From Psammoneis japonica (lineage: Eukaryota), in assembly GCA_008632985.1 (NCBI GenBank), contig QPGO01000137.1, forward strand, positions 124,001 to 188,000: DNA of 64,000 nucleotides, given 5' to 3'. Numbering within the stretch: position 1 is the stretch's first letter; every line of letters starts with the position of its first letter. The notes under the pieces were generated by a model, which searched no databases, was not told the DNA's origin, and saw nothing but the letters and a program-made list of their open reading frames with translations. This document shows, piece by piece, positions 1,802 through 46,204 of the stretch. A program made the position numbers and the translations under genes.

Positions 1802-4800
1802 CTACACCAAGAAATACCTGGAACCACTCCCTGTTGTCACGACTTCGCCTCCCGCCACCGTGCCTTTCGCAATCGGACTTGTTGTGACGCGCTCGCCTTC
1901 GGAGAAAGCTTCTGATCCACTGATAAAGCCAGAGATCGATCCATCCCTATTGCGTTTCCAGTTCACAATGGTTGGCACACCTTTCGGGGCCTGCATCGAC
2001 GGTTTCTTTAGCGGCGCCTTCTTTGCTGGAGGAGGAGCAGGTGAAGAGCTGTCCTTGTCATTGTTCCCACCACCCAACCCAAAGAGTGAAATCGTTACTC
2101 CGGGTCGTGCGCTTTCCACGGCCTCTTGGGCGGCTTTTGCTTCTCGCTCCTTGCGCTCCTTTGTCAGTCTGATAGTTGCTCCAGGCCTTGCGTTCATCAT
2201 GTCCTTTATTGCTGATCTCTGGTTTGATGTGTTGCCCTTGGGTGCGTCGGAACTCAAAAAGTAACGACTGCCGGATCCTGTTGTAACGACAACGCCGTCC
2301 TCGATCGCACCGGATGTAATGGGAGATGTGTCGATGCGCTCTCCTTCTTCAAAGTTTGGAGAGCCATAAACTTTACCGGTGATTCCGCCTACAAACAACG
2401 ACCAAGGAGTCAGAAAATAGACAGCGGTAGCGCAACTAAGTCATATTATGCAGCTTACCATCTCTTCGCTTGGACCAACTCACGACAGTCGGGACGCCCC
2501 GTGGTGCCCTGGCAAGCTTATTCACTTTTGGAGGTGCAGAAACAGCCTTCTTTTTAGGTGCAGAAACAGCCTTCTTTTTAGCCGCTGCAGCAGCAGCAGC
2601 TCTGGCTTCCATTTCTTGCCGTTTCCGTGCGGCGGCTGCCTCTCGGGCTTCAATGGCTTCCTTTCTCTTGGCTTCTGCAGCCGCCTTCCGCTCCGCTGCA
2701 GCCCGTTGTCTTGCTTCAGCTGCCGCTGCTTTCTTTGCAGCAGCTTCAGCTTGAGCGGCGGCCCTTTTCTCCGCTGCTAATTTCTGAGCAGCGGCCCTAG
2801 CACTGGCAGCTTTGTCGACTGTCGACGGAGAAGGAGCTGGAGTTGCTCCTCCTCCGCCGCCGCTGCCAAACCCACCAAACAAACCACCCCCTTTTTTCTT
2901 CTCGGCTTGAGGCTCAAGATAATATCTACAAGAGATAATAGGGAACTGAATTAGAAAAGCGAGGAGGAGTGAATCCAAAGACACCACAGAGCAACTTACT
3001 TTGAACCGGAAAGTGTCTGAACAACCATACCCCCTGATGCATCGCCACGAATAGTGGAAGTCGTCACCGACTCCCCTTCTCTAAAGTTAGGAGATCCAGA
3101 AATTTTCCCTGAAATAGAGCCATCTTTATTTTGTGTCCAGGCCGAAATTGTAGGCACACCACGAGGGGCGGCAGATTTTTGCGGAGTAGCAGGCTTCGGA
3201 GGGGTGTCAACTTGGTCCTCGGACCGTCCGAAATTGAAAAGAGATATTGTGGCACCGGGTTTCGCACTCTCTACGACCTGCGCCGCTTTCTTTGCCTTTG
3301 CTGCGGCTGCTTTCTGTGAAGCTGCCTCCTGACGCCTTGCTTCTGCGGCCGCTGCTGCCGCTTCTTTCTTTTGTTGAGCTTCGACACGACGAGCTTCTGC
3401 AGCTGCCGCAGCGGCAGCTTTTTTCTCCTCCGCTTCTCTCCTTTTAGCTTCGGCAATCTCGGCACGTTTTGCTGCCGCTGCTGCTTTCTGTTCTTCCGCA
3501 TCCCGTCGCTTGGCTTCGGCAATCTCGGCACGTTTTGCTGCCGCAGCCGCCTTCTGTTCTTCTGCTTCCCGTCGTTTCGCTTCGGCAATCTCGGCACGTT
3601 TCGCTGCCGCTGCGGCTTTCTGTTCTTCTGCCTCCCGTCGCTTGGCTTCGGCAATCTCGGCACGTTGGGCTGCCGCAGCTGCTTTCTGCTCTGCTGCTTC
3701 TCGTCGCTTGGCTTCTGCTGCCGCCTTTCTCGCCTCCGCTTCCTGGCGCCTAGCCTCGGCAATTGCCGCTCGTTGTTCTTCGGCCTCCCGTTTCTTGGCC
3801 TCTGCCGCTGCTTTTCTCTCTTCAGCCAGTCGCTTCGCCTCTTCCGCCTTTTGCGCTGCTACAGTGGCGGCATCGTCCTTGGTAGGGGCTGGAGGAGGCG
3901 CCGGAGCTCCGCCGCCAAATACACCAAAGATACCACCGCCGCTAGCGGCAGCCTCCTCCTGAGGATCCAGATAATACCTAAATGACAGACCAATGAGATA
4001 CGACAAGGCCAGCAGAGAACATTGAAAACAAGCGCTGTTTCTCGATAACTTACTTGGAACCAGAAGAAGTTTGAACAACGGCCCCTCCTGTAGCTTCTCC
4101 TCCAATCGGAGACGTTGTAACTTGTTCTCCTTCGTTAAAGCTAGGAGACCCAAATACTTTTCCGGATATAGACCCATCTCGATTTTGCTTCCATTGAGAG
4201 ATTGTCGGAACTCCCCGTGGAGCCGCTGCAACCTTTTTAGGGGGTGGCGCTTTTACGCCGGAATCTTCAGTCGCCGCTATCTTGGCTCCACCTCCCAGCC
4301 CAAAGAGAGGAATACTTGCTCCTGGTTTGGCGCTCTCAACTCTGGCTTGAGCAGCTGCTGCCGCGGCTTGACGTTGTTCTTCTGCCTTCTTTCGTTTGGC
4401 TTCAGCAGCAGCTTGCATTTCCGCCATTTTGGCAGCCCGTTCTTCCTCCCTCTGCCGCTTCAATTCTGCAGCTGCCTGGGCAGCTTCCTTTTTCTTTCTG
4501 GCTGCTTCTTTACGAGCTTCATTTTGTTGACGAGCTTGTTCTTGTTTCTTTTCTTCTGCTTCGCGTTTCTTCTCTTGTGCGAGTGCGGTAGCTCGTGCTT
4601 GCGCTTCTTCTCTTGCCCTCAACTTCTCCTCCATTTGCTTCTTCTTTGCAGCTTGAGCTTCTTCTCTCGCTTTCTGTTGCTCTTGCTGGCGTTGTTTGAT
4701 ATCTGCTGCTGCTGCTTTGGCTTTTTCGGCAGCAGCACCTGCTTTTTTCTTGTCTTCTCCTTCTTGTTGTTGCTTCTTTTGCTCTGACGCCTGCTTCTTG

Positions 4801-6380
4801 GCTCGATCGACAGCCGCCTTGGCTTTGGCTTGGAAAAATCCTTCCGTGGCAGATTCGCTCTTGGTATCCTCCTCTTGTTTAGTGCCTCGTTCCGCTTTGA
4901 CATCCTTTACAAACTGTTGCAAGGCAACTTCACTAAACACAAACTTGTCTTCCTTTTCCTTCTTGGGAGGAGGTACCGCTGGTGTTTTTGGTGCTTGTGG
5001 AGTAGTACTACTCGTTTTGATCTCGGGTATCTTTGGTAACTCAATCTTGGGTATTCCCAACTTGGGTGGTTCCGGAGCTTTTTTCGGAGGAGTTGGTGGT
5101 GGTGGTTTCGGTTCTGCCTTGAGTGGAGGTTCCGATGATATCTTTGGAAGTTCAATCTTGGGTAGACTTAGTTTGGGTGTCTCTACTGGTTTCTTTGGAG
5201 GTGGTGGTACCTTTGGAGGTTGGGCAGCCTTTTTCGGGGCTTCTACTTTGGGCAAATCAATCTTTGGAATCTTGAGCTGTGGTACCTCGGGCGGTGGCTT
5301 GGGAGGTGCCTTGGGAGGAACCTTTGGAGGCGCTTTCGGAGGCACCTTGGGAGTCAGTTCGGGAGGCGCTTCAAGAGGAGGCTTTGGCGTCGTGGTGGTG
5401 GTCTTGGCCGTAGTAGTAGTATCTAACGGAACAATATCCGCCACAGAGGCCTCGAGTTCCTTGATTGCTTTGGAAGGCAATGCTTGTATATCTTCGACTG
5501 CTTTGTTGATGGACTCTTTGGTTTCATCCACCTTTTGCTCAACGGCTCGCTTTGTAGACTCTGCCACCTTTGCGGGTGCCGCCTTGACTTCTTCCACGGC
5601 ATCTTCAATGGCATCTTCCACCGCATCGGCAACCTTGGATGGGATCTGCTTAATTTCTTGAGCCGTTTCCTCTGCTTTTTGCTTGGCAGCATCCGTAACT
5701 TTTTGGGGTATGGCCTTGACATCTTGTACGGTTTCATCCACCTTGGTTTGTACCGCCTTTTGAATACGTCCCGGAATTGCCGTAATCTCGGCAACGACCT
5801 TATTCACTGCGCTTGTGGCTGCATTCTTTCCAAAGTCAAAGACGGCTCGAGCGGCTCTTCCGATTGTATTACGAAAGAGTGATGACGTTTTTGGATTCGT
5901 GGCACCCGCATACGCTCCAGCACCAAGTGCAGCACCGAGAACAACAGGTGGAACGGCGGGTGGTACACCAGCATCACCCAATTCCAAGCCTACACCAACA
6001 CCCAAGGCAGCTCCAATGGCTGCTCCTCCCGCAATCGTGGCAATGACTTGTTCATCCAAGCCATCACTAGAGGGAGGAGGAGTAGATGGTGTTTCAGCAG
6101 CTTCAAGAGCTTCCTCTGCCTCTCGAAGTGCTTCCTCTGCTTCTGCCGTCACGTCATCAATGTTGATAACATCGCGCTTCTTTTCATCATCGTTGTTGTC
6201 GCCTCCAAAGGGGTTCTTGATCATTTCAAGTTTTTGTTTACCAATACTAGTATCATGATGTGTCGTCGGACGAGTTGTCAAGGTTGGCAACGCATTCGGC
6301 AAAATGGATTTAGATGGTAAGAACGCATTCGTTGTAGCCAAAAGGTTGGCCGATGCCAATAAGGACAAGCACCACCTCAT
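1802..6380 (-). CDS. Large (~1452 aa) plastid-targeted Ala/Lys/Glu coiled-coil protein with four copies of a ~60-aa 'RGVPTI.W..N.DGSISG..GSP.F.EGE.VTTSPI...GSKYYL' domain; exons 6380-4054, 3977-3000, 2925-2459, 2388-1802
   Basis: Four collinear ORFs joined in frame by GT-AG introns 3978-4053, 2926-2999 and 2389-2458 (4359 nt total, divisible by 3). The N-terminus MRWCLSLLASANLLATTNAF is a bipartite presequence. Confidence 0.8.
3415..3720 (-). repeat. Coding tandem repeat, 63-bp / 21-aa unit (AAAAKRAEIAEAKRREAEEQK) x ~4
   Basis: Visible in the translation of ORF 2996..4231 and as repeated 'ttcggcaatctcggcacgtt' in the DNA. Confidence 0.85.
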
Positions 6381-7054: not shown

Positions 7055-7730
7055 TTATTTGCGACGACCCGTCGAGCACGTGTGCTGTCCTCGAACACGA
7101 ATCCCCCACCAGTGACGAAGACCACGATGAGCTCGAATTTTCTTCATGCGTTCAATATCATCACGCAATTTCGCGTCAAAGTTTTGTGCAAACACTTGCG
7201 TGTACTTGCCCGTTTTGAAATCCTTTTGACGATTCAAAAACCACAGCGGAATTTTGAATTGACGCGGATTCTGAATAATGGCCACCAATTTTTCAATCTC
7301 GTCCGCCGTCAATTCACCCGCGCGTTTGTTGACATCAATTTCGGCTTTTTTGCAAATCAAATCGGCAAAACGACGGCCGAGGCCCTTGATTTTCGTCAAG
7401 GCAAACACCACATTACGCTTCCCCTCCACGTTGGTGTTGAGAATACGCAAAATGTGCTGAAACTCGGGGCCTTGCATCAAACTGTCTGCCCTGTAGTAAT
7501 AGTGAGAATAGCAAATTATTTGGTGAATAAAAAGACCCGGATGAAAAATGAAGTGAAGACAGACGACGCAAGGACGGGCGTTCGCTCGATCCATCGATAG
7601 CGACAACGCCATGATGAAGACGACGACGCATCCGTCAATCCATTTCTTGTCCTCTCGAACGCATTCCTCACGACGCAGCTGGAATAATCACAATGCCTGC
7701 ATTTTTTCCCTTTGTTTGCGATACGTACAT
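7055..7730 (-). CDS. RPS18: 40S ribosomal protein S18 (uS13); exons 7730-7729 and 7490-7055
   Basis: [16 protein letters not shown]...KRAGEL...[11 protein letters not shown]...HRGLRH.WG.RVRGQHT is classic uS13. Intron 7491-7728 (GTACGT...TACAG) splits the start codon AT|G. Confidence 0.93.
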
Positions 7731-8615
7731 GGTGTCCTTTTTTCGTTTCTCGTCAACACACACAAGAGACAGGGTTGTTGTGTGAGATGGTGAGTGTGTG
7801 TGCGGTGTGAGGAGTGGGGTGAGCTTCTACGTTGGTTCTGGTATTAGTTCTACGTGACTTTTTTACTTTCTACCGTTTTACTTGGGATATGAGCTGCTTA
7901 TTTAGTTGGACAAACAGACAGACTTCTTGCAACAGCATAAACACCTAATTTTTTGTTGACCCGAAGAATGCCCGTTCCCACTCTTGTTCCATCCAATGGA
8001 GAGACGCAACGTGCCATGGGAGCACAAGACACCATCAGAGTGGGGCACTGCAACCATGATGTTTGGACTTTTTCAACATCAGCCAGCTGCTCACCCTCTG
8101 CGAGCAGTGCAACCTCTCATTGCAGTGTGGTGACAAAACAGCCTCTCATTGCAGTGTGGTGGTGTGTCAAGCAATGCTTTGCAAGGGAAGAAATGACTGG
8201 CATCGATGCCTTGTGGCTTGCATGCTTGTTGTCATTTCTTGCAATTTTCTGTCATTTTAGAGAATTTGCCACAAAGGCTCCAGTGCAAATTCTGCATGAC
8301 TCAGCAACAAATGCTGGCGACCTCCTCCTTCTTGTCAAATCACAAAACTGCTTCCATCCACACCACCCCGCCAGCAGCCCTCCTCAACAATCTTCCTTTC
8401 TCCCATTGTCCAATCAAGTGCTTCACTCTGTGGGATGGTGAGAGCACTGCCTCTGTTGCAGCACATGTGCACATGAGTGAGTTGCCATCCTCTGGCGGCA
8501 TTGTTGATTTTGATTGCCACTCATTTGCTGCATGAGCCAGCATTTCTGCACAAGCTCCGGCGCTGTTTCTGCGTGGGGTGCAATGAATGATTTTTCCAAT
8601 GTGCCAACCAGTCTT

Positions 8616-10476
8616 TCTTGGAACATCAGGGTTGGAGGCAGTTTTCACAGGACAGAGAGAGACAAAGTTGTGGTGGAAAGATGTGCCAATGAGGCTGTGA
8701 ACAACACGTGATGAGTTTGTGCTCGCAACTTGGTTTGCCTTGAGCTGCAGGTCTTGTGCTCACTTTTTAGCTTCTGCACCTGGTCAACATGGCAGCAGCA
8801 GTTGGTGGCAACAGCAATGCATTTGCAAGCCACACGGTGAGTTGGAAGTTGGTGAGACCAAATGTGCACCAGTCAGCAAGCAGCAAAACTCCAACACAGA
8901 AGCCAAAAAGGTTCAGCACGACACACTCAAAGAACTGGTGTCATGTGTCAGAAGGCTGGTGGGAAGTTGAGAGGAATCCAAAAACAAGGGCTGGGAAGGA
9001 AAGTCAACAGGAATCCAAAGGTGTGTCTCATGTCAGCAGATCAATCTCTGGAGGGCCTTGCTGCCCAAGAAGCTGTCAAGGGTCTGCTGAAGAAGAAGGG
9101 CATGTCAAGGTTGTGTCGGGGTCAGAGAGACAGAGTGCACAGCTGTCAGCAAGTGATGGAACTCAAACACAAGTCCCGGAAAAAATGGGCAAGGACACAG
9201 CTGAGTGCAGGAGCATGAAAGATTCAAGTGAGGGCAGGTTTGTGACACCATTGCCAATTTGGGGGGGGGGGGGCAGCAGGCAGATGGTTCTTGCACAGAA
9301 ATCACAAGGAAGATCAGCAAGCATGTGCATGTCAGAAGAGTGTTTGGGCCAGAGGTGCAGGCGCGCTGGTGTTGCTGAGGCAAGAGAGCAACCCAAAAGA
9401 GCTGGTGCATCCATTGGGAGTCACCATGTTGGAGAAGGACAAGGCAATCTGGGGCAAGGAATGGAGCGTGATCTCTGCAAGACATGGAAGGTGAGGGCAT
9501 TTGATGTTGTTGTGGGGCAATGTGCAAAGGATGTTCATCACAAGCTTGAAGGAGTGATGGAGTTTGCAAGAGCTGCAAAGGAGCGGGACATGGCAGCACT
9601 GCTGGACACTCTCAAGTTGATCTTGTTCAATGCAAGTCTGAAGTTGAGCCCACCACATGTCCAGGTGATCAAAGCTTGGCAGCAGCAGGTGCTCATTCAT
9701 CAAGATGAAGAAGAGGCACTTCAAGATTGCCAAAATTGGCTCATGAGTGTGGCTCACAAGTGACGGAAACATCTTGTGGCCGGGTCATCAGGAAAAAATG
9801 CCAAGAAAGAAAATGGGTTCAGCAAGGATGCTGATGACACCCGGAATGAAGAAAGGAACAAGCGTGCCAAGGAACATTGGCATCATGTCCTGAAAGACCA
9901 GCATTGGCAGTTTTCACTGGGGTTTGAAATTTGTCCCAATCAAGCCAAGGAGGCACTGCAGGTGTTGGGCACCTGAAGGGCCAACAAGAACCTGATGGAC
10001 AAGCTTTGTGCAGAGCAAGAAGAGCCAGGTTAGATGCTGGAAATGTGACACAAGGTTGAGCATGTGAGAAAGGACTGTCATGACAGGGATGCATCGTTCA
10101 TTGGCACAGTTGAGCAACATGGAGCATGGGAGTCAATGGAGCAGTTGGCATGGTGTTGGGTGGCACAGATTCCAACTGTCATCCTCCTGTGCTTGACTCA
10201 CATGTGGTCAACCAGTTGACACTTCTTGTGTGAAGGAGTGTGTTGGAACATTTGGATCAAAGGTGGTTTTCACAAGAGGACAGACAGACAAAGTTGCAGA
10301 GTTTGCAACTCAGCTTGAGTTGTGGGTCTCATGTGCTCACTTTTTGGCTTCTGCACCCAGTTGACATGGAAAGAACAGCAGTTGACAGCAACAGTGGTGT
10401 GTTTGTGAGCCGTGCAGGGAGTTGGGAGTTGGGGAGACCAAATGTGCACCAGCCAGCAAGCTGCAAAACTCCAACA
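8616..10476 (+). mobile_element. Non-autonomous (gag-only) Copia-like LTR element, decayed; LTRs ~8616-8896 and 10241-10476
   Basis: Direct repeats both ending CTCCAACA. The 3' LTR starts TGTTGGA after a purine tract (tgaaggag). 5-bp TSD GTCTT at 8611-8615 and 10477-10481. Gag-like remnant RAFDVVVGQCAKDVHHKLEG...DMAALLDTLK. Confidence 0.75.
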
Positions 10477-11864
10477 GTCTTGCCTTCAAGGCTCCTTGTT
10501 GCACACATCCAAGTCCTGGCCAGGCAATCTCTTTCTTCTGTCTGTCAGCTTGTCAAGGTTGCTGTTTTGAGTGACAAACTTCCTGCCACTCTTGTTGCAG
10601 CTCTCCTTGGTGCAAAAGATGAGCAACCTTTTGACCCTGGTTGGTGCTTGTTTTGGAAGCAAATTCCAGTGCAGTTTGTGGTTTCTTTTGAAGCTCTTCC
10701 TGAATGTGACTGTCCTTTGCTGTCATGGTGTGCTGGCCTCTGTGTGGTTGCTGCCAGAGCAAATGCAACAAACTCTTTCAAGTGTTGTCTCCTCTCTGCA
10801 CCAGCTGTTTCAGCGAGGCATCACCATCTGGTGACATCTTTCCTGGCCCATCTCCTGCAACCCCTTCTGCCACACCAGTTGGTCCACTGGAAGTGTGAGT
10901 TGACCGGCACCAGTGTTGCTGGGCAAAGGTGGTGCACCATTGGTTTTTTTTCATCATGTTTGATGGGTGCCCATCATGCAGCAAAAAATTCTGGCTCAAA
11001 AATGAAGTGCAGTCAGCTGAAAAGGACAGGCACAATGGCAGGAGAAGTGAGTTGGGTGGCCGCTGCAAACCAGCAACCATGGATGTCTTGCCACTCTCTT
11101 CAAAAAAGGATGCTTTTGTCGTGTGCAACATGCAACCTGACATGCTGCTGCAGCCACATTTCAGCAAAGTGCCCATGTCCATCAAGGGAAGAGAGTGGCA
11201 TGATGAAAAGGAAAAGGTGCACAGCCTTGCATTTCATGTCATGCCCCCAACCCCCAATGTGGTTGCTTGATGAGCATGGCAGTGTTCTTGTTGAAAAACA
11301 ACTCACAACAGAGGACACCTGGGGCAAAGAGGTGAGTGGTCCTTTCTTTTTGAAAGATGGTGATGAGAATGGTGACCATGCCACAGAATGCTTCTCTCTG
11401 CCCTGTTGGAATGCCGAGCTGCAGCAGTCTCAAAGCAATCACCAGATGTTGGAAAAACACCCATTGCACACATTGTTCAATGGCATGCTTTGAGTCGCTG
11501 CCTTGTTTGAAGTGGTCAAAAGTGCCGCTTAAAAATTGACAGTCTTTTTTCTTGAGGCAGCAGCTGAGCAGGGATGCAGCAAGCTCTGCGACAGTCATGA
11601 CACCTGCTTGATGCTTGTCAACTCAGTCCAACTCATGGAGTTTGCTCAATCTTTTGCCAGGAACTCAAGTTGCAGCTCAACATCATGAGCAGCTGGTTGG
11701 CACTTGAAGAAATGCCAAGCAGCCCTCATGGCCATTGTGTCAAGAGAGCCATTGTGCAGGCCAAACTCTGTGCTTGGATGCAAGCAGATGCTTCAATGTT
11801 AAAACCACAGCCTCAGATCTTTTCTGCCAATTTGATGATGTCAACAACAAGGTCTGGCCAGCCA

Positions 11865-12250
11865 GTGTTTCCCAAATGTGCACTTTGGTTGACCAAAATG
11901 GGCACTTTGGTTGGCGCAAATTTGGTTGAGACAAATTGATGCTCATCACCAAAATGACTTTGTTTCCCAAAAACATCATTTTGGTCAGGGAAATTTGGTG
12001 TGCTTTGGAGGGAATCTTCCATTGGAAAGCAAGCATGTTGAGTCCAACACATTGTGCAAACTTTGCAGAAGCTGCATCAGCACTGTTTTTGTGTGGAAAT
12101 GTGCACAAAAATGAATTTGGTTGACACTTCACAGGTGTTAATTTGGCCAACCAAATTGGTTGGGTCAGTCTGCAAATTGGCCAACCAAAACATTTTGGAT
12201 CAACCAAAATGGCAAATTGGTCCAACCAAAATGCACACTCAGGAAAAAGC
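11865..12250. mobile_element. Decayed MITE with ~60-bp degenerate terminal inverted repeats and multiple TTGGTTG/CAACCAA subterminal motifs
   Basis: The left end ttcccaaatgtgcactttggttgaccaaaatgggcactttggttg resembles the reverse complement of the right end caaccaaaatggcaaattggtccaaccaaaatgcacactcaggaa. Confidence 0.5.
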
Positions 12251-14029
12251 GCTGAGCTCAACCATTCTCTGGCGCTGTTTGACCCTGAAATCAAGCAAGA
12301 CTTGACCACCACCAAAGGTCTCCAGCCATGTGTGGAGCCATGCAAGTGATGAAGAACTCATTTGCTTTGGTGTTGAAACATGAAACACCAAGAAATGCAC
12401 CACTCTGGGTGGAAGTTGGTGCATCACCAGCAGTGATGTCATGATGTTTTGTCCATCTTTGAGTGGCCAGCAGAGTGGCCAGATCAACTCGCAAGAAGCT
12501 CTCCATTGCAGTTGTCTGCCATTCCATCCAGTCAAACTGGGGCTGTCAAGTGCAAGAACATTGATGTCATGCACCCACAATTTGCTTGGTCAAGCATTTC
12601 AGTTGAGGTCACAACACCCAGTTGTGGCACGCCTTCATGAGTTGTCCACCGTGTTGTGCCAGTGCAACAGAATTGGCCTTCAGATGCATGAATTGCCAAT
12701 GCCATGCTGAAGTTGTGGAGGCAAGGGTCATCAAGAAAAGAGCTGCAGATTTGGTGGTGTCTCAAGCAAACAGAACATGAGGCAAACAAACAAATTGTGG
12801 AGCAGAGTTGCCAAAATCACAACAAATTTGCAAAGACAAGAACCAAATCTCATCTCTTGCTCTCTTCTTCCAGAGAACAAGTCACAGTGCTGTGATGCCT
12901 GCTCAGAGAACAAAGTGGGTTGTCTCTCTCTTGAGGTTGCACAATCCATGGTGCAGAAGCCAGAAGATGCGGCGCTGACAACAAAAATGCCACAAGTTCT
13001 AAAGACACACAAACCACAAGCAGACATGATTTTCTTCATCACCTGCATGGAGCAATTGCACTGCATGACAAACACTGCACAACAGACAACAATGTGCCCA
13101 ATGGTCAATGGCTGCTGCTGCAGTGGGACTGCACACTTTCATTTTTTTGGCTCCCACACAACCCCACATGTGATGCACAAAATCATGCCAAATCCTGCAC
13201 AACTGTCATGCAGTGAGCACCAATGGTTCAAAACACTCTTGCTTGTTCAAAAAAATTGAGACAGATGGAGTGCCACTTTGCTGTTGCTGCAGTCACTGAT
13301 GTGACAATGGGTGCTGAACACAGGTCACAGGTGCTTGGCTTCATTGAACACTCAAACCTCATCATTTTGTGCAGTGTTGGTTCACAGGAGGGCAGAAAAA
13401 GCTGGGTGAAAGGGTCAGCCAACAATTCCTGTTGATCTGCCATGGTTGTTTTTCAACCTCAAAGGCAACCAAGGTCTTGCTGATGCCAAAGCTTGTGTTG
13501 TCATGCATCTTGAGGTGTTTTGGAGGAGAGACAGAATGAGCACAGCAGTTGTCTGTTGCCCCCACAAGATGATGTCATTCCATGATCCATGAGAAAGCAT
13601 CAATTTTTCATGTCGTCACAAATGTCAGCAAAGTGTTTCTGAGGCAATTCAACCCCAAATGGAGCTCATGAAGACCAGCAAAGTGCTTCACATGGAAATT
13701 CATGCTGCAGCTCAACAAGTGAAGAACACACTTTTGCAAAAAAGAGGAGGGTCCATGCCAAGCTGACAACAAAGTTGTTCAGCATCTGCCATTTGGTTGA
13801 TTTGTTGGTGCTGCTGTCACAAATTGGAAATGATGTGGGCCCTCATTTGTGGCTTGAAAGACTCATCTGCAGGCAACAAAGCTCAACTTTGGGAACACAA
13901 GTCAGCACTCCATGTGCAACAAGCAGTGGAGGTGCACCACCTGATGAGATGCCAAATTGTCCGCTGCTGGATGGCGTTGGCAACATGCGCACAAGTTGTT
14001 TGGCTGGTCATGTTCTCAGAAGTCAAGGC

Positions 14030-14072
14030 TCTCCTCCCCCCCCCCNTCTCTCTCTCTCTCTCTCTCCCCCCT
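14030..14072. repeat. poly-C/(TC)n microsatellite containing one N
   Basis: ctcctccccccccccntctctctctctctctctcccccc. Confidence 0.9.
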
Positions 14073-14302
14073 CCACAAAGAAAACAACAGCATTTGCAGG
14101 CACACTTTTGGCAAGCACTGTCCCAAGTTGCCAAAAGCTGTAGAAGCACCACGTTGTTGATTTTGAGGCTGGGTTGCTGATTGACAGACAGCGGTGAATG
14201 AGTTGTGGAGCATTGCATCTCTGGTGACACACCACACCTTGCATTGCTCAGAATGTTGGCACGCCATTTGGACATTTCTTCTTTTCCAAAGTGTTTGAAG
14301 CA

Positions 14303-14498
14303 CTCAGTTGCACTCCCCTTGACTTGTTTGGGAAGAGAAGTTGCAAGTTTCCACAGGTTTCTGAGGACACACAACGAATCCAATCAGAAAGGTGCCAAAA
14401 TCGCGACGTTCGAGTTTTTTAAAGAGCCACACAAAATGAGAAACCTGTGGAAACTTGTGACTTCTCTTCCCAAACAAGTCAAGGGGAGTGCAGTTGAG
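14303..14498. repeat. ~60-bp inverted repeat pair (14303-14362 / 14439-14498) with ~76-bp spacer
   Basis: ctcagttgcactccccttgacttgtttgggaagagaagttgcaagtttccacaggtttct matches the reverse complement of 14439-14498 with about 4 mismatches. Confidence 0.8.
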
Positions 14499-15155
14499 GA
14501 TGGATCTACGTGCTGCAGTCTGTTTTTTGGGAGCTCGCACTTTTTATAAAAATGACCCGGATTCGTTGCACCAAACACACGCGTTGTTCGCCAAAAAAAC
14601 ATTTCAGCGATGGGCCGAACTTTGTCCGCTTCAAAGACACTGCAGAGTGCACAAACAATGGTTTTGACCATGTGTGACTTTTACCTTGTCGACTGCAGAC
14701 ATGTCAACAGCCAGTCAAATGCCACTTGTCGGCAATTCCCGGAAAGTTGCGGCTTGTTTCCCATGAGAAGCCCGATTTTAGCGAAAATCAGCTGTTTTTT
14801 CGACCGGGCAACTGGGCAGAGGCCGACAAGTGGCATTTGAAGCACTGAATGTGCAGCTCTTATAGCCGTCTAACAGCCCCCAAGAGGGTTTGACGAACGC
14901 ATGAGTGTTCGGGGGCGTTCCGAGGCAGGTCAAAATAACACGGTGAAGTGCGGGAAATTCGAGCTATTTTAAATTAGACCGCTGCACCTAGATCCATCAA
15001 GTTGGCGAGCCGACTTTGGCGATTTGTGTAGAAAACATACTAAGCTCTACGTACGTAGAATCTGAAAACTTAGGACTTGGCATCGACTCTCATCGATTCC
15101 AATCCAACTTGAAACTTACTCGACAGAAACGACAACATCGCTGCAAGCCGTCACG

Positions 15156-16301
15156 ATGAGTTTGCTGCAAAAGTTCAGGCCGTTCCTGAAAGTTGCAGTT
15201 GCAGTCGTTGTGTTTCATGGCCTTTTTCAGATGTTGCGCCTTTCAGACGACTGCTCGACTGCAACGCTCAGCTCGGAAACAAGCAAAACGGCGATTCATC
15301 GAACGTCTCCTTTTGACATGCCCATCAAGGGTGAACGCTTTGAATTGTTCCAACCACTCTATGACTTGCCCACATCCGCCGCCACCATGATGGGACCTCC
15401 TGAACCGCTGATTGAAGATCTGACGAAACGGTTGACTTGGTTGGATGGAATCACGTATGTTGGACCAGAGACAAAACCAGCAACGGAACGAGCTCAGTTG
15501 GCCTATCTGGAAATCCTCAAAAGGATGGTGTCAGGGATTTCCTATGGTGCTGCTGAATTTGCTATCCAACCGAGAGTGAGGCAAGATCGTGGAAGAATGA
15601 TTCCTCTCAACGAGGGCCGGCGACAGAATGGGCAGGATTGGACTTATCTAGGTGACACAATGACTGGATACAAGCGCCTTGACAACGTCCGTAATTTGCT
15701 GACCGACGTGATCAACAACAACATTGAAGGAGACTACATCGAAACCGGTGTTTGGAGGGGAGGCTCTTCAATTTTTGCGCGTGCAGTCTTACATGTCCAT
15801 GGGCAGGCGAAGAATCGTACAAGCTATGTTTGTGATTCTTTTCGCGGGCTACCTCCTGGAGACAGAAACTTGACATTGAAATCTGATTTGGGTTGGGACA
15901 AAACCCCATACTTGGAAGTGCCAGCCGAAATTGTCGCACAAGGATTCCAGAAGTACAGTTTGCTCGATTCTAATGTAGTCTTTGCCAAAGGCTTCTTCAA
16001 CGAAACAATGCCGCCTCTTGGGAAACGAATCGAGAAGCTGGCAGTCATGAGACTGGATGGTGACATGTACGAGAGCACCGTGGATGTTCTCTATCATTTG
16101 TATGACAAGCTCAGCATCGGGGGTTATGTGATTATGGACGACTGGACTGGTTTTCCCTCAAAGGATGCCTGCCTCGACTTTTTCAAAGTCCATGGGATTT
16201 CACCGCAAATAATTCCAATTGATACTATGTCGGCATACTGGAAGAAAACGGAGCAAGTGGAAGTGCAGAAGTGGCGATATGCCAAGAACCAGTTTTCCTG
16301 A
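15156..16301 (+). CDS. TylF/MycF/NovP-family (macrocin) O-methyltransferase, type II membrane
   Basis: TMTGYKRLDN, IEGDYIETGVWRGG, CDSFRGLP, KGFFNETMP, LRLDGDMYEST-like motif and GGYVIMDD; N-terminal hydrophobic anchor. Confidence 0.9.
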   Translation: MSLLQKFRPFLKVAVAVVVFHGLFQMLRLSDDCSTATLSSETSKTAIHRTSPFDMPIKGERFELFQPLYDLPTSAATMMGPPEPLIEDLTKRLTWLDGITYVGPETKPATERAQLAYLEILKRMVSGISYGAAEFAIQPRVRQDRGRMIPLNEGRRQNGQDWTYLGDTMTGYKRLDNVRNLLTDVINNNIEGDYIETGVWRGGSSIFARAVLHVHGQAKNRTSYVCDSFRGLPPGDRNLTLKSDLGWDKTPYLEVPAEIVAQGFQKYSLLDSNVVFAKGFFNETMPPLGKRIEKLAVMRLDGDMYESTVDVLYHLYDKLSIGGYVIMDDWTGFPSKDACLDFFKVHGISPQIIPIDTMSAYWKKTEQVEVQKWRYAKNQFS

Positions 16302-17257
16302 GATACAATCGTATTGCCCAAATGTTTCGGAAAGCACTCGAGAAATTGGCGATCGGAGTGAATGAAGAGATGGTTCTGATGGTGAAGAGTATTTTAGATA
16401 AAAGGGGGCAACAATTTAGAAGCATCTAGAAGACGAAACAGAATTTAGAAAATTTTCCCCTCTAGTAGAGCTGACACTTATCTTAAATCTTACTCTGTCA
16501 AACCTTGCGGTAGGGCTCTGCGTCTGAATAGGTGGTAACCGCATGACGGGGACGTGCTCTCTGCAATCCCACACCTTGGCGGAAGACCTTCATGCTGGTC
16601 CTCAATTTGTTGAGTGTCGCTGCGTCAGTGACTATTCGTGCACAATGTTGTGAAGGTGGAAAAATTCTACAACATTGTGAATGCGCGACAGTCTCACCAC
16701 AACGACGACATGACAAATGAAAAACTGAGAACTGGTGGCTGCCCTCCGACTCAGTTCCAGTGACCACCCAACTCGGTCTTCAACCAAGCCACCGACAATT
16801 AAAAAGACAAAGGCAAAGAGGCAACAGGCAAAGTGCCAGCAAAGAATGAACTGGACAGTCTTGCTTGCAGATTTGAAGCACTGGTCAATGTCTCTGCTGA
16901 TGACAGGGCAGATTCAGGCAGAAGCAGAAGGGTGTTTTCTTGCATTCCAGAGAGCAGATTGTTGTCTTTCTCCCATCATCAACAAGTGACTCTCTCTTTC
17001 AAAATCTTCTGCACCAATGAAGTGGTTCTGTCATTTCTCACAAAGTGTCAGAGTCTGGTCCTGCCAGTGCTGGCACCACATGGATGACATGACAATCAAA
17101 TGGCAGCAATGCTGGATTTTCAAATTGAGGCAGCAGCAGCTCGGCATCAAGGGTTGCTGTCATGCCAAGTGTCAGAAGATTTGCTGCCACTGCCCAGGCA
17201 CACAATGCTCAAAGTGTGCCAACAATTTGTTGGTCCTGTCAATGCACAAGGCAAAAA

Positions 17258-17488
17258 GTGGTGTGTGAGATGGTGAGTGTGTGTGCAGTGTGACGAGTGG
17301 GACAAGCTTGTGTGCAGATTCTAGAGCAGAGAGCATGAATTCAATGTGACTTTTTTCTTTCTGCCATTTTCGAGTTTGTGGGGGATGCAAGCTTCATGAC
17401 TTGGCAAACAGCAAACAAACTTGTGTGACACAACCAGTCTAAATAAAAGACAGGCTTTCTGCAACAGCACAAACACCTGAAAATTTTG
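17258..17488. repeat. Decayed duplicate of the RPS18 upstream/promoter region (cf. 7775-7955)
   Basis: Shares tgtgagatggtgagtgtgtgtgc, gtgactttttt.ctttct and gcaacagca.aaacacct with 7780-7950. Confidence 0.75.
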
Positions 17489-17566
17489 ACATGGTCATTG
17501 TTTTAGAATCTGCTGCAAACCTCATTGAGCAGCATCAGCAATGTCGATGCAAAACCCAAAACCAAC

Positions 17567-18100
17567 ATGGCAGAACAAGAAGAGGAGTTTGAGACAGAAG
17601 GTGCACTCAAAGCTTGGTTGGAAAGCAAAGGGGTTGGGAGGTGCAAAGCAGCAGAAGCCATTGTTTTGTTCCACAAGGGTTTCGACAATCCAGATTGCTC
17701 AGTGGAATCAGCCCTGATGTCTTGCATGGAAATTGTCTTTCTGATGCCATTGCACAAACTTTGAGCAACAAGCTTGCCAAACAACAGAAGCAAGGTCAAT
17801 CTCCCACTGTGTGTGCATTGGGGAAAGGCTTGGTTGGTCTGGACAAATCACATGAGGAGCAATGCTGAATGTGCAACTCTTGAACCTCTAGAGCAAGATC
17901 ATGTGAGGACCCTTTTTGAAAGATTTGGCTTGATGGATGAAGATGAGAAGTTTTTTCAGTCAGCTTCACAAGTCCACCACCGGTGTTCTAAGGTTTGTTG
18001 CCCATGTGGTCAATTTCTTTGCAGATTGGCATCCCGGGGCAGGTAATGAAAAGGCAAAGAATGGGAGGGAAAGACATTGATCTGATGTGCCTTGGAGTTT
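17567..18100 (+). pseudogene. Decayed gene with a diatom SAM-like N-terminal module (MAEQEEEFETEGALKAWLESKGV...FDNP...LSNKL)
   Basis: Recognisable N-terminus of a multicopy diatom family (from recall, not searched), followed by frameshifts in TA-depleted sequence. Confidence 0.4.
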
Positions 18101-19388
18101 TGACAGTGTCTTTGTTGGGAAAGCAACCAAGAGATGAATCCTCTCCAAGGCAATGCTTGCAATCTGTGTGCATTCTTCATTGAGATGATTTGAGTCACTG
18201 CTCCGCATCTGCCTCTCAACCTTGATGCAAAAATCATTGGATCCAATGGGGGTTGGAAGCAAATTCAATCATGCTCAATGTGTGTGGTGTCTGTCTGCTG
18301 CACTTGAAGAAGCACACTGAAGTGGGAACATCTGAGCACCATTTTGTCACAATGCCCCCCAGCTGTTTGGACAATGTCTCGGCAGCCTGCCAGGATTTGC
18401 TCATCCCCTTTTGGGCTTCCTTGTGCAAAATAAATCCAGCCCAGGCAAGTGCACAAAAGACTCAGGAAGCATTCCAGAGTCAATGGCACAACAGCGTCCA
18501 TGCCCTTGTGTGAGTGAAGAGTCAAATCAAGGACAAAAAACATTGGTGGAGGTTCTTGAGTTTGTCAAGGATTTGAAAATTGCAGGCTCAACATTTGAGC
18601 CCAACACAGATCATGCACTCAAGAAGTTCTCCAAAATTGCTTTGGCTCCAAGTCCAGGCAACTTCATGCTGGCAGAAGGCAGTGCACAAGTCTTTCTTCT
18701 CCAACCAGCGTTGCTTTTTCTGTTGCCATGTGTGCTCTCTGCCATCAAAAGCCAGCATTGCTGTTTTGAAGATGCTGCCACCACTCAGCAGTGCCAAGAA
18801 AGCGCCCCCTTCAATGGCCGTGCCCTGCACCCAGTGCTTGCTTTGCTCACACAGATGTTTTTTTTGCAGTTTGAGAAAAAGAAAGGTGTCAGCTGCCATT
18901 GTCTTCATTGTTGATTGCACCTGTGCACTTGCAGCAGGTGCTTCAGTCATTGACAACTTGCACAGTGTCTGTCATTGAGGAGTTCCTCAGGGGGCACCTC
19001 TCCTCTGTCTCCTCTTGTGTGGTCACCAATTTTTTCCTGACAAAGTGGACACTCTCCACTGCTTTCAATGGCACTGAATGCACCAAGCACACAGGGGGAG
19101 ACAAGAGCTGCTGCAAGGCTTTAGAAGAGCTGTTTTGGATCAAGCTTGGCTGTCTCCTTGTCATCAAGCAAGGCATCATTGCAGCAATGCAGTGGAGCGA
19201 GCATTGCTGCTGTGTGGAGAGCTGAGAGAGCCTTCCAAACAACTTCGGCACCTTCTTTGTTGCCCACTCTCTAATCTCTTTGGGCTCTGAAAAGAGCTGG
19301 GAAGTTGGCACAGAGCAACAAGCAGCAGCGCAAGGCTCTTGTTGTTGGCTGTGATTGCGGAATTTCTTGCAACCACCACCAGCACTGG

Positions 19389-20575
19389 CATTGAGAACAA
19401 ACAAAATGTGCCAAAACTTGTGGCCCTGCATGAAGCTGTCTGGCCTGCAGCATTGAGCAAGAAGAATTTGTTGTGAATGGAAAAGACCTGGATGAAAAGA
19501 AAGCAAGCACAGACGACACAAGCAAGGGTGGATTTTCAATCCATCCATGATGATGTCATGATGAGATGATGACACATCCATCACACAAGTGATGGCAGTG
19601 TTGACATGACACAAATTTGCACAAAACATTGGCATGGAACATGAGCCACAAATTTCAGAAAAAGCCAATGCCCAACCCCAAATTGCCACACACGCCACTT
19701 GCCAGTGCTCCTTTAGAAGCCAGCGCTGCTTGTTGACATCAACGTCAAGTCAACTGGGGCTGCTTGCACCCTTTTGTCTGAGTTTTGTTTGATGAGCTGA
19801 ATTTTGGAGGTGAACTCAAGCTGTCAGGAGTGCAAAATCCCATGCATTTTTAGCTGGCTTGTCATCAACCTCGCTCTCACGCCACTCGCTCTTGTTGTGT
19901 TTCTTCAAAGTGGCAAGCTCATTTGCAAAACAACATGATGTGCTCAAGGGACTCACCTGGCACCTGATTTAAAGGAATGAGCAGAACTCAGCAAGGTCAA
20001 TTTGCATCTGATGAATTCTGGAGAAATGCATCCCCATGGATGTCCAGGATGATGTCATCTCAATCGCGCAGCGCCACATCATGCACACTCAGAAGCTGCA
20101 GTGTGTTGTCAACAACAAGCACGCAAAATTCTTTTAGCTGCTGACTGGCAGTTTTCAAGAATGGGATCACATCGGCTCTTTGCCATCATCATTTGTTGGC
20201 ATGCACTGCAGCTGACAAACAAAAACAAGTCGCGCCAGCCAAGTTTCTTTTTCGTGAACGCCAAACTTGTCAATTTTTGCAACCTGTGCAAAGAGCGGTT
20301 TCAGCGGGATGTTGTGCCCACATCTTGAACACATTCCTCATGCCAGCTTTTTTCACATGGTGTCCTTTTTTCGTTTCTCAAGAGCAAACACACAAACACA
20401 GAAAGGAGAAAGTGTTGTGCGATTATTTGTGTGCGGCGAGCTTGTACGTGGATTCTCGTATGAATTCTACGTGACTTTCTTACTTTCTACCGTTTTACTT
20501 GAAATAACTGTAATATTTGGTTTGAGTAAGGGAAAACAGACAGACTTCTTGCAACAGCATAAACACCTAAATTTT
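19389..20575 (-). pseudogene. RPS18: RPS18 pseudogene fragment: exon 2 start plus intron (19389-19583), ~740 bp of unrelated insert, then exon 1 and promoter (20322-20575)
   Basis: CCRPDSFMQGHKFWHILFVLNA versus [22 protein letters not shown]. Intron similarity (aaaagacc.ggatgaaaa, agacgac.ca). 20322-20575 matches 7655-7952 (acatggtgtccttttttcgtttctc, aaacagacagacttcttgcaacagcataaacacctaa). Confidence 0.8.
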
Positions 20576-25108: not shown

Positions 25109-25620
25109 TGTTTGCTTGGCAGCAAGTGTTGAGCCTCGTGGCTGACAATGTAATGATGTGGATTAGTCTCGACAATCTTTGGATGATCAGGCGTTCGTTC
25201 TTGCTAGCTTCTACAGCGAAAGGTGCAACTTTCAACCAATCGCCCTTGGCGATTTTGTGAGCAGCTTTTGTTTTATATGTATTTTTAAAATAGCTGAATA
25301 AAATATATTGTACAGATGCACTCCACTATCATAATCGATGTACAAATATTTAACGGTCACATATTTTGGTTGCGTGTTGAGTCCCGTGAGCTCGCGACGT
25401 GGGAATTGCAATCGTGAAGAAGAATCACCAATGCCTGCTCTAGACGCGTGTCCACCAAGAGCACCAACCCACCTGATCCTCGGAGCTTGGTGTCTCAAGG
25501 CTCAACAACCTTCTTCATGTCTCCTGCCAGGGTGCTTTCTTTGCGTCTGTCTCTCCCCAGTGGTCGTTTGTGCACAGCTCACAAAAGAGCAAATCTTTTC
25601 TTCACACATCACTTTTCCAG

Positions 25621-28600
25621 TGACAGGATTTGAACAAGATCCCAGTTTGTCACACACAATTGTGTGTGCTCTTAGTTCTGCGCGCATCGCGCGACGTAGT
25701 TTGCTTTCGAGCCACAGGCTCACGAGAACAATGACAGCAGCACCAACATCAAGACACCAGTCTTTCGGCTCCTGTGACGGTCTCTGCACGGAAACTCATC
25801 TGCTGTTTAGACAGCAGCAAGGAGTCATTGTTTTCTTCCACCCAGTCATCTTCATTTTCTGTCAGATTAACAGTCTTGCTCTTCATCATCCATTGAGCGT
25901 TCATCATCGTCATCGAGAAATTTTTGATGACACGCACCGCTTGTGGCAGAAGCACACATCTGCCTTCTTCACTGCTGGACACTGGATTAAATCTACACGT
26001 TTGGATTTGTCCAATGCCTCCCATCGTTGGATGTGTTTGTTCAACGGACATTTGTTTGGCCAGGAATTCCCAAATTCTCAGACATCCGAGATTCCGGATT
26101 CCTCACAGCGGATCCCACCAATCCATCCGCACACGTCCATGCACACACGACATGAACCCCTGACTCTGGCTCTGCTCCACGCATGCCAAGTCTACCGCCT
26201 TGCATCTGCACTGGATTGCTGGTCCTCTGCAGTCCCACAAGGTCTACTGGGACAACTGTGAGAGGAAGCAGTTTGTGATTGCAGCCTGCGTTGGGGCGAG
26301 GGTGCATTTCCCACGTTTGTTCATCCCTCCACAGCGCCAAATTTGGCCGGCCTGATCGGGTTGTCCAACTGACACAAAACAAGAACGGTTCAGAGGTCTT
26401 GTCCACCTCTGGCCAGCTTGTCAGCAGGGGTTTTTAACCCATTGCTCTGCTCTCAAGCAACCCAAAGCATCGCCAGCTGCGGGTTCGGACATGCCGGCAC
26501 AACTCTGCGGACTGGACAGGAAACTTGGCACTCAACTGCAAACGGGATGTCACAGCCCAGCGGTTTCTGACTCTTGAGACAGTTCAAGACATCAAGTCAA
26601 GATTCAAGTCAAGTTTCAAGTTGTTTCAAGCCCACACTCTGATTCCAGCCAGCTGTGACATCCACCCAGTTGCAACATGGTTCTCACCAGGCAACAACAA
26701 ATCGATGGCCTCGAGCACATTCTAGGCACTGTTCTGAATCAAGCCACAGACAGTCCAGTGTGCTCCGCCCTCAACATTGATGGAACCAATTTGCATCAGG
26801 ACCTTTTCACTTTTACTCTGATGCAATTGGATGCCCTTGTGTGCAACGACGGCACCAAGCAAATGCCCTTGCCACGTGGTTACAAAGCACAGACAGCTGC
26901 GCTGATTAGCCTGCACACGGCAAAAGCACGCGGCGGCGCGGATGTCAGCAATGACCCTCAGTTGTTCACACAAGAGGAGTTCACCAACTGTCATCTTAGT
27001 CCTGAGTGTGCAGCGTCCCTCTCGATGGGTGCAGCACCATCTGCTCCCACTCCTGGCTCGTTGCCACCCAAACCACGTGATCCCATGCATGACTTTAAAT
27101 GAGGCATTAAACGTGACCCACTTGCCTTCGCACTTCTCAAGTCCGACAAACAGTGGCACATGTGGCACACCTCCATCATCACACAGGCCCACTCCCAAGA
27201 CATTGCATGTGCACTCTCGATCTGATGCACAAGCCCTCCACAGCTGAGGACAAGGCCCTGTTTGATGAACAACAGAAGCACATGTTCGCAGTGTTTGAAC
27301 GGATCTTGCAGAATGACAAAGGCAAGGCACTTGTTCATCAACATGTCGGCTCCTCTGATGCTCAAGCGGTGTGTCATGACCTCTCCAAGTGCACCCTCAC
27401 TTCCACCCATGCATCCCTGGAGTCCTTGACCCTTCTCACACACCTCACCACTGCTCGCCTTGGTGATGGCACCTGGAAAGGATCCACTCATGCCTTCACA
27501 CTTCACTGGCAGGATTTGCTTCGCAAGTGTGAAGCTCTTGTCCCGGGTGCGGACCATTTCTCTGCTGGCCAGAAACATGTCATGCTTGAGAACGCCATTC
27601 ATCCTGTTGAAGAACTCCATTCAGTGAAGAATCAGGCCAATCAGTTCCGCACTCAGAATGGAAAGGGGCCCTCTTACAAAGAGCACTGTGGACTCCTGCT
27701 TTCTGCTGCAGCACAGCATGACAGCACGTTCGCTCCCAAGACAGCTCCTTGCACTCCGCGCCGTGCCATCTACAAACATGACCTGGTCCCTGATGACCCT
27801 GATGATGATGCATTCTTCAACATTGACAGTGATGTTGACGTCATCCAAGCTCATGCTGCACAAACTCGCAGCAATTCCCTCACCAAGGAACAACGGCGTC
27901 GCATTCCGCCGGACCATCAGCGCATTTGGGACACCTCACCCCAGCCCACCAAAGCGATCATTCTTGGCTCGCACACCGCCCACACCGGCAACTGCCATGA
28001 CTTGACGGCGGTCAACCTGCATGACCTCCGCATTGGCAGTGATGGCAATGTCAACTTGTCCGCCAACACTCACGATCTTGCGTCAGCCTCAACACAATCC
28101 GACACTGCAGCCGATGCAGCCGATGCCAACCCCATCCTGGCTCATCTCACCAGGCGCAAGCCTCTGCCACCTGGCAACTTGCAACATCTCCTGGCACCTG
28201 AATGGCCTCCTTCCACCTGTTCTGGCAAAAAACCGCCCGGATCTGCACCTTCCGTCCGCTCCGACGCAAAGCCCAATGACACTGTCATTGAGATCAACAG
28301 CCACAAATGCTGTCACGTCAACAACCACAATGTTGTCTGCTCTGCCTCGACCCACAAGTCAACTCGCAAAGGTGCTCTCGTGGATCATGGTGCAAACGGT
28401 GGCATCGCCGGTGATGATGTTTGTGTCATTGCCCGCACTGGTTGCCAGGTTGACGTCCAAGGTGTCAACGATCATCAACTGGTGGTGGACATTCCCATTG
28501 TCACTGCTGGTGGTGTCATCCACACGCAACGCAGCCCTGCCATTGCCATCCTTCACCAGTGTGCCCACACTGGAAAGGGGAAGACGATGCACTCTTGCAG

Positions 28601-46103: not shown

Positions 46104-46204
46104 ATTGTTTGAGTCGTCAGAGTCGCTGTTTGAGGGATAACTACTCTATATTATTTGCAAGAATTTATGGTACCGTAGGAAATTATATGTGGAAACAATG
46201 CAAG

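Follow-up and report, generated by a model that had tools for sequence, protein, structure and literature searches.

Flanking-base contexts of residual TpA dinucleotides in TpA-erased blocks of Psammoneis japonica DNA

In a stretch of 64,000 nucleotides from Psammoneis japonica (GenBank assembly GCA_008632985.1, contig QPGO01000137.1, positions 124,001 to 188,000, forward strand), the dinucleotide TA (TpA) was found to be almost erased from seven large blocks, two of which belong to a Copia-type and one to a Gypsy-type retroelement. This single 64-kb stretch, called the window below, is the scope of all counts. The TpA that survived in the blocks lay predominantly in the context YTAR (Y, pyrimidine; R, purine), and those in the opposite context, RTAY, were almost completely missing. 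The base adjoining the changed adenine on its 3' side was mainly responsible for this bias. It is probable that the contexts of the residual TpA are the kinetic footprint of a process that rewrites TpA to TpG or CpA in silenced, CpG-decaying transposon DNA. Such a flank rule is a fingerprint that makes the question of the enzyme testable; it is not yet an enzyme.

Results

Contexts of the surviving TAs

The erased blocks were called by two-state segmentation in which TA was set against TG+CA. Seven large, sharp-edged blocks with a total length of 34,756 bp were obtained, and 27,415 bp of the window were treated as normal DNA. Counted per kilobase, the observed/expected (o/e) ratios in the blocks were 0-0.1 for TA, 0.1-0.7 for CG and 1.5-2.1 for TG and CA. 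For all erased blocks together, TA o/e was 0.06 and TG/CA o/e was 1.75, compared with 0.61 and 1.17 in normal DNA. The dinucleotide shift between erased and normal DNA was limited to TA, CG, TG/CA and, slightly, GC; among the NA steps, TA alone was lost, and AA, CA and GA did not fall. Three TA-poor stretches (3279-3858, 4317-4863 and 15124-15453) were left out of all counts, though the segmentation called them erased. They lie inside normal genes, have a CpG o/e of 0.7-1.1 and probably represent ordinary composition.

Each TA was assigned to one of three classes: YTAR, mixed (YTAY or RTAR) and RTAY. The blocks, together with the island that separates the first two of them, were as follows:

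7954-14855, erased block 1 (A); 14 TA left (9 YTAR, 5 mixed, 0 RTAY)
14861-16537, + strand, unmutated island between blocks A and B with a TylF-type O-methyltransferase open reading frame (ORF) at 15066-16301; TA and CG normal
16542-20419, erased block 2 (B); 17 TA left (12 YTAR, 5 mixed, 0 RTAY)
25367-33790, + strand, erased Copia-type retroelement with long terminal repeats (LTRs) at 25619-25864 and 32220-32465; two blocks, 25367-28953 and 29257-33790
35446-41494, erased block in which a 450-bp repeat occurs twice; 17 TA left (11 YTAR, 6 mixed)
50732-55329, erased block; 21 TA left (11 YTAR, 10 mixed, 0 RTAY)
58791-63998, - strand, erased Gypsy-type retroelement with a pol ORF at 60544-62931; CG o/e 0.71, the least CpG-decayed block; 28 TA left (12 YTAR, 15 mixed, 1 RTAY)

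Altogether, 128 TA were left in the seven blocks, and these comprised 74 YTAR, 53 mixed and only one RTAY. The 1,155 TA of normal DNA were distributed as 199 YTAR (17.2%), 617 mixed and 339 RTAY (29.4%), and the difference between the two distributions was highly significant (chi-square p=1.7e-28). Because genes avoid in-frame TAA and TAG, the flanks of TG+CA in the same blocks were used as a second baseline; relative to these contexts (24/51/25% for the three classes), the bias was still evident (p=1.1e-20). Removal of repeat copies left 66 YTAR, 52 mixed and 1 RTAY. The same bias was observed in 7/7 blocks, with RTAY absent from six of them and present once in the youngest, the Gypsy block. 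For blocks A and B combined, 31 TA remained (21 YTAR, 10 mixed, 0 RTAY); the binomial p value for YTAR was 6.8e-10, and the chance of finding no RTAY at normal-DNA frequencies was 2e-5.

The original prediction, which was made from the sequence of blocks A and B, claimed that surviving TAs sit mostly in YTAR and attributed this to an adenine mutator that prefers a pyrimidine after the adenine. Six example sites were named in it. All six were found, displaced by 1-3 bases at most:

8258, atttTAgaga
11530, cgctTAaaaa
12139, gtgtTAattt
13000, gttcTAaaga
17322, attcTAgagc
19714, ccttTAgaag

The predicted bias proved to be real (74/128 YTAR in erased blocks vs 199/1,155 in normal DNA). Equal depletion of all NTAN contexts, named there as the outcome that would contradict it, was not what was observed, as the ten strand-symmetric NTAN classes were strongly heterogeneous (chi2=171, df 9, p=3.6e-32). 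Expressed as density relative to normal DNA, TTAA was retained at 0.59, CTAA/TTAG at 0.27, CTAG at 0.13, GTAA/TTAC at 0.12, CTAC/GTAG at 0.07, ATAA/TTAT at 0.05, ATAG/CTAT at 0.015 and ATAC/GTAT at 0.005, and both GTAC and ATAT were at 0. The YTAR classes were themselves reduced to 0.13-0.59 of normal density; the preference is not absolute, just as had been suggested.

The half-site rule

To describe the rule by single positions, each TA was split into two half-sites, a half-site being the 3' flank of the adenine on either strand. The base immediately 3' of the adenine (+1) in survivors was A in 0.50, G in 0.29, C in 0.16 and T in 0.05 of cases, compared with 0.21/0.23/0.32/0.24 in normal DNA. 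At +2, A accounted for 0.56 in survivors vs 0.29 in normal DNA, and the composition from +3 onward was about flat. The effects were estimated by a case-control logistic fit. Relative to a half-site with A at +1, survival was multiplied by x0.51 with G, x0.20 with C and x0.08 with T (likelihood ratio (LR) p=1e-32). Any base other than A at +2 lowered survival to x0.34-0.46 (p=2.9e-8), and the +3 term was marginal (p=0.01). Ranked by the base 3' of the adenine, mutability followed the order T>C>G>A, with A at +2 being protective. Half-site survival of TAT (0.02-0.03) was lower than that of TAC (0.03-0.09), and TACG (9/150) was no more depleted than TACC (8/166) or TACA (19/224). Finally, RTAY was depleted beyond the level expected from independent half-sites (p=0.012).

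Considering the effects at +1 and +2, the spared motif is better written as TYTARA than as YTAR, with TTTAAA and TCTAGA as its extremes. Thus, the simple opposition of TAY and TAR in the original prediction held insofar as T-A-Y was hit and YTAR was spared, but it was too simple to account for the order T>C>G>A, the influence of A at +2 and the excess loss of RTAY.

Which flank and which strand

T-A-Y and R-T-A cannot be separated by survival, because a Y after the A is an R before the T on the opposite strand. The product does discriminate between them: YTAY yields YTGY when the target is the adenine with Y after it, and YCAY when the target is the adenine that follows R-T. The direction of change was determined at 76 Tyr codons of the Copia and Gypsy pol genes that are conserved according to homologues. 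These codons were found as Cys in 35 cases, His in 29, Tyr in 3 and other residues in 9. In Copia, 41 had changed (Cys 21, His 20) and 2 were kept; in Gypsy, 23 had changed (Cys 14, His 9) and 1 was kept.

Tyr codons that follow a pyrimidine had become Cys in 19 cases and His in 9, with 3 kept, and those that follow a purine had become Cys in 16 cases and His in 20, with none kept. The 16 Cys to 20 His at the latter sites, which are RTAY, indicate no general sense-strand bias. The Cys share fell with the base before the codon in the order T (6/9), C (13/19), G (14/28) and A (2/8) (trend z=-2.03, p=0.042), and this is the order expected if what counts for the adenine on the opposite strand is the base on its own 3' side. 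Models with fixed rates were compared on the 64 Tyr outcomes; the rates were taken from the survival data, and nothing was fitted to the direction data. The log-likelihood (logL) was -57.3 for the model with R-T-A only, -44.4 for no bias and -45.1 for the model with T-A-N only, i.e., the 3' model.

An additional test was provided by codon boundaries of the type NNT|ANN, where a hit on the sense-strand adenine alters the residue and all sites are preceded by T. At conserved codons, A-to-G hits were found at 7/69 Ile/Met boundaries (T|AT), 3/53 Thr boundaries (T|AC) and 1/95 Asn/Lys boundaries (T|AA). The difference between T|AT and T|AA was significant (Fisher p=0.010), and an R-T-A rule would give the reverse order. 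The excess of products over normal DNA was 10.1 per kb for YTGY+RCAR vs 6.6 per kb for RTGR+YCAY, a comparison with a noisy baseline.

Taken together, the trend across Tyr codons (p=0.042), the rejection of R-T-A and the boundary test (p=0.010) demonstrate an influence of the base that follows the changed adenine, which is what the original prediction meant. The flank adjoining the changed adenine was mainly the determinant, and the other flank was a weaker contributor. The contribution of the latter is seen from the directional bias, which is below that of a pure 3' rule, and from the over-depletion of RTAY; owing to this lesser effect, RTAY vanishes faster than independent half-sites predict. 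By a rough hand estimate from class survival and the 19:9 split, a 3' Y accelerates the change about 3-fold and an R at -2 about 1.5-fold.

Other sources of directional data were of limited use. In three- and six-copy repeat alignments, 7/8 discordant mixed sites fitted the 3' rule, but these were not used as evidence since the copies are not independent: in the six-copy alignment, even RTAY sites are dominated by a single state (5:1), which points to shared mutated ancestry. The 32 mismatches between the two Copia LTRs were mostly CG vs TG/CA, and the one TA/TG difference and one TG/CA doublet among them were too few to use. Among 22 of 858 rows of contig variants over 50700-64000, both mixed-context differences (52352, TTAT/TTGT; 52373, ATAA/ACAA) fitted the 3' rule, which is an anecdote only.

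Most survivors are old TAs

In the aligned coding parts of the retroelements, 36 residual TAs were available for comparison with homologues. It was found that 17 of them still specify a conserved residue (Leu CTA/TTA, Tyr and Phe|Lys boundaries). Another 4 disagree with a consensus of at least 50% and are possibly new, and the other 15 gave no information. In the 110-bp subrepeat that borders the 450-bp repeat on both sides, the motif TTTAAA (e.g., 37390-37397, +) was kept in 5/6 copies, and former TA sites near it have turned into TG or CA, depending on the copy. The survivors at conserved residues and the kept TTTAAA together indicate that most surviving TAs are old TAs missed by the process. 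If mutation had reached equilibrium, their contexts would still be shaped by context-dependent destruction.

Genes, retroelements and CpG decay

The window was found to be eukaryotic, with single-exon genes interspersed with one Copia and one Gypsy retroelement. The kinesin, TylF-type methyltransferase, ALMT/FUSC-like transporter and glycosyltransferase ORFs lie in normal DNA, and the retroelements lie in sharply bounded erased blocks. The Copia protein had its best-named relatives among diatom proteins (Phaeodactylum, Nitzschia). In blocks A and B, TA o/e was 0.03 and 0.06, CG o/e was 0.19 and 0.23, and TG/CA o/e was 1.7-1.9. A Pfam search with 54 ORFs of the four old blocks, including A and B, revealed no transposon family; because no family is recognisable there, the mobile origin of A and B is only inferred.

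CpG was also reduced in the erased blocks, with density ratios of 0.38, 0.42, 0.43 and 0.65 after T, A, C and G, respectively. A single deaminase for both T-A and T-C-G, which was considered as an explanation, was unsupported since CpG decay did not follow a 5' T rule. CpG decay had a flank bias of its own across all erased blocks: GCGC was spared (0.98) and ACGA/TCGT was lowest (0.28; heterogeneity p=1.3e-8). Of 93 conserved Arg residues in the retroelement proteins, 14 are now His and 8 are Cys. When the Copia and Gypsy blocks are compared with the older ones, TA erasure precedes the decay of CpG: in the Gypsy block TA o/e is 0.09 and CG o/e is still 0.71, and CG o/e is about 0.2 in the oldest blocks.

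Discussion

If the contexts are such a footprint, the changed A:T pair would be read together with its neighbours, a 5' T being obligatory. The rate would depend on which base follows the adenine (T > C > G > A, a roughly ten-fold range); an A at +2 would slow it further, and a purine two bases upstream would add a smaller effect. RTAY sites would be erased first and mixed sites next, and the TTAA, TTTAAA and TCTAGA junctions would be the last to disappear.

As the cause of these changes, the likeliest candidate, proposed tentatively, is an enzyme that deaminates adenine in DNA to hypoxanthine, namely a polynucleotide deaminase that contacts both bases flanking its target. Such an enzyme would fit because A-to-G changes occurred on either strand, because the TadA family needs a 5' U or T and because the pocket in this family contacts both flanks. 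Natural TadA acts on the tRNA loop, not on chromosomal DNA. It was reported that the TadA family needs a 5' U and that the wild-type enzyme reads UACG(A) and TadA-8e reads UA (PMC8052359, PMC12296453); contacts of the TadA pocket with the bases on both sides of the target were also described (PMC10354150). A somewhat bolder and doubtful extension is that diatoms carry a chromatin-targeted DNA adenine deaminase acting at T-A-Y(-not A) as a heritable, transposon-killing defence, the flank fingerprint being its own specificity. No deaminase was recognised among the ORFs of the window that were scanned.

A number of points weigh against the interpretation as a footprint. Each of the direction tests was modest when taken alone (p=0.04 and p=0.01), and the 19 Cys to 9 His at YTAY Tyr codons gave a two-sided p of 0.087. 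The pure 3' model over-predicted the bias: the best exponent was 0.41, and the LR test vs no bias gave p=0.12. Since blocks A and B contain no recognisable coding sequence, the direction tests were drawn from the Copia and Gypsy blocks. The expected contexts came from host genes of the window or from TG+CA flanks in erased blocks and not from the unmutated ancestors of the elements. The over-depletion of RTAY fits a duplex-level reading equally as well as a strand-specific enzyme. Directions in the six-copy subrepeat were mixed (one YTAY site had 2 TG : 4 CA), although the copies share ancestry. No strand-coordinated runs of TG or CA, the pattern that a processive single-strand deaminase might leave, were seen in the erased blocks, whose saturation makes them uninformative in this respect; in runs tests, z ranged from -1.6 to +2.1 in erased blocks and was 0.16 (Copia) and -0.43 (Gypsy) for Tyr outcomes. 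For the enzymatic part in particular, the UACG(A) motif of wild-type TadA did not emerge, as TACG was not specially depleted, and the natural tRNA deaminase ADAT2 of amphioxus (BjADAT2) prefers GAA for adenine and TCG for cytosine, whereas a 5' T is needed here (PMC10354150).

Among the alternatives, it is unlikely that the thymine rather than the adenine is the target, i.e., that the opposite-strand T of TpA is modified, for example by TET/JBP-type oxidation to 5-hydroxymethyluracil (5hmU) or 5-formyluracil, and mispairs with G to give T-to-C changes. The flank rule would then read R-T*-A, with a purine 5' of the modified T, and not T-A*-Y. Every context count fits both routes, as A-to-G and opposite-strand T-to-C changes are inseparable by sequence. 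5hmU is only weakly mutagenic, which counts against this route, and no clear trace is seen at TC (TC/GA o/e 1.00 in erased vs 1.08 in normal DNA; CC/GG 0.88 vs 0.95), though a thymine mark need not mutate in both TA and TC. In its favour, enzyme-made 5hmU was reported to mark transposable elements in dinoflagellates, and a preference for TA and TC dinucleotides was described in older work (PMC11572971). That system resembles the present one in being an enzymatic base modification on transposable elements with preference for the T in TA; it differs in that TC is also preferred there, with no clear TC loss here, and in that the role described for 5hmU is one of silencing and not of mutation (PMC11572971).

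It is likewise rather improbable that accessibility of the duplex or chromatin explains the rule, with TAs at junctions of T-runs and A-runs shielded by structure or protein and RTAY steps unusually exposed, in which case the flanks would say little about an enzyme pocket. The reach of protection to +2 (A 0.56 vs 0.29), the symmetric form of TTTAAA and TCTAGA, the synergy of the flanks at RTAY (p=0.012) and the weak directional bias (exponent 0.41) all agree with this explanation. A symmetric duplex property, however, would not give the asymmetry towards the flank of the changed adenine (p=0.042; p=0.010), and A-tracts do not account for the protection by G at +1 (x0.51, compared with x0.20 for C and x0.08 for T). 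The R-T-A rule, under which a purine at -2 from the adenine of the deaminated strand would alone be decisive, is mathematically identical in survival counts, but it is very improbable because it fitted the Tyr outcomes far worse than no bias (logL -57.3 vs -44.4) and predicts more hits at T|AA than at T|AT, where 1/95 vs 7/69 were seen. Finally, it is scarcely credible that the residual TAs are new mutations in T/A-rich contexts or an artefact of a gene baseline that avoids in-frame TAA and TAG. Some support for this comes from the 4/36 coding TAs that contradict a conserved residue and from the under-representation of TAR in host genes (YTAR 17% vs about 25% for random flanks); nevertheless, the same-block TG+CA baseline (24/51/25%) still gave p=1.1e-20 with RTAY at 1/128, and 17/36 coding survivors keep the conserved residue.

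The deamination reading can be compared with several known systems. In a literature search, TpA-only hypermutation was found in one 2026 preprint, on Bigelowiella, an unrelated alga. In this preprint, TpA-restricted hypermutation of integrated giant-virus and virophage DNA was described in Bigelowiella natans, an ADAT2-like deaminase was proposed, and about 230 de novo TpA mutations from mutation-accumulation cultures are listed in Table S2 (Mettrop et al., bioRxiv 10.64898/2026.01.13.699255). The likeness includes A-to-G/T-to-C changes at TpA only, giving TpG/CpA, their confinement to foreign or mobile DNA and a long-term signature of low TpA with high CpA+TpG. Unlike Bigelowiella, which is a chlorarachniophyte, the present genome is diatom-like, erasure is near-complete, and CpG decay is coupled to it in the same blocks. 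The main text of the preprint describes no flank context (the words 'context', 'flanking' and 'trinucleotide' are absent from it).

The TadA family shares the strict 5' T, and wild-type TadA, as reported, shares a preference for a 3' pyrimidine (UACG/UACGA). Differences from the wild-type enzyme are that TAT is at least as sensitive as TAC, that TACG is not special (9/150) and that A at +2 protects. TadA-8e, according to the data given for it, shows no downstream preference (PMC12296453), which also differs from the present rule. BjADAT2, the one natural ADAT2 for which deamination of adenine in DNA has been shown, demonstrates that a eukaryotic ADAT2 can turn A into I, and C into U, in DNA (PMC10354150).

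Two further systems were considered and rejected. Repeat-induced point mutation (RIP) of ascomycetes changes C to T at CpA, making TpA. The blocks resemble RIP targets in the dinucleotide-specific transition hypermutation of repeats and transposons with genes spared, and a context signature is likewise used to recognise RIP. The direction is wrong, since TpA is destroyed here and Tyr is changed to Cys or His and not the reverse; moreover, unlike under RIP, three tandem gene copies with 68-71% identity (42484-46096; lactonase-like beta-propeller genes with normal TA and CG) were untouched. ADAR favours a 3' G, tolerates a 5' U or A and produces changes on the transcribed sense strand only. Hyper-editing of retroelement RNA by ADAR is similar in its A-to-G changes with a 5' preference that includes U, but ADAR-like editing was excluded because TAG was spared (x0.51 vs x0.08 for TAT, relative to TAA), the 5' T was strict, and both strands were hit (Cys 35 : His 29).

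In a full-text literature search, no description of TpA loss or of its flank context in transposon or diatom DNA was found; the single match of 'TpA', in the searched text of PMC4504042, was the word 'Tpase'. What is added here is the +2 term, the synergy at RTAY and the tests of strand and direction. The flanking preference of a mutator is the most direct handle on its identity, and it was through such preferences that APOBEC enzymes, and likewise RIP, were linked to their footprints. A quantified rule with strand assignment gives a prediction that is checkable on the Bigelowiella list of de novo mutations, and it allows deaminases or thymine dioxygenases that come into question to be assayed with a yes/no outcome. 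The contexts that are still intact could be used to date and order insertions. If a natural DNA adenine deaminase is indeed responsible, it would be of interest to the base-editing field; if it is a diatom deaminase, this would be a transposon defence mirroring fungal RIP, and the fingerprint would pick the enzyme among candidate deaminases.

Repeats and inserts in the window

Direct repeats of about 230 bp with 74% identity were found at the outer edges of the region of blocks A and B (7727-7953 and 20355-20575), and both are unmutated. A third, partial copy (17259-17370) lies within an erased block, and its TAs have been changed (e.g., CTAC to CTGC, GTAT to GCAT). Since the edge repeats are unmutated and the inner copy is mutated, being repeated is not what marks DNA for erasure.

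The 450-bp repeat with 110-bp direct terminal subrepeats is present at 36996-37446, 40008-40454 and 59356-59803 (reverse strand). Its centre of about 100 bp is identical in the three copies and keeps every CpG, and the arms are full of TG/CA changes. The centre contains a tRNA-like box B (GGTTCGAAACC), and ARAGORN calls no tRNA there. A metagenome scan with a 21-base pattern from this repeat gave one chance match, in a contig of 62% G+C unlike the window, and a scan of viral contigs with the Gypsy alignment gave relatives at 27-29% only. Summed contig depth was about 41,000-52,000 over the repeat vs about 46-120 over adjoining genes, which is not copy number; the Gypsy element was also at very high summed contig depth.

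Inside the Copia element, a stretch of 293 bp (28958-29250) is unmutated (TA o/e 0.54, CG o/e 1.30) and contains, at 29081-29119, a perfect hairpin of 17 nt. The stretch resembles a small element whose insertion followed the erasure or which was exempt from it.

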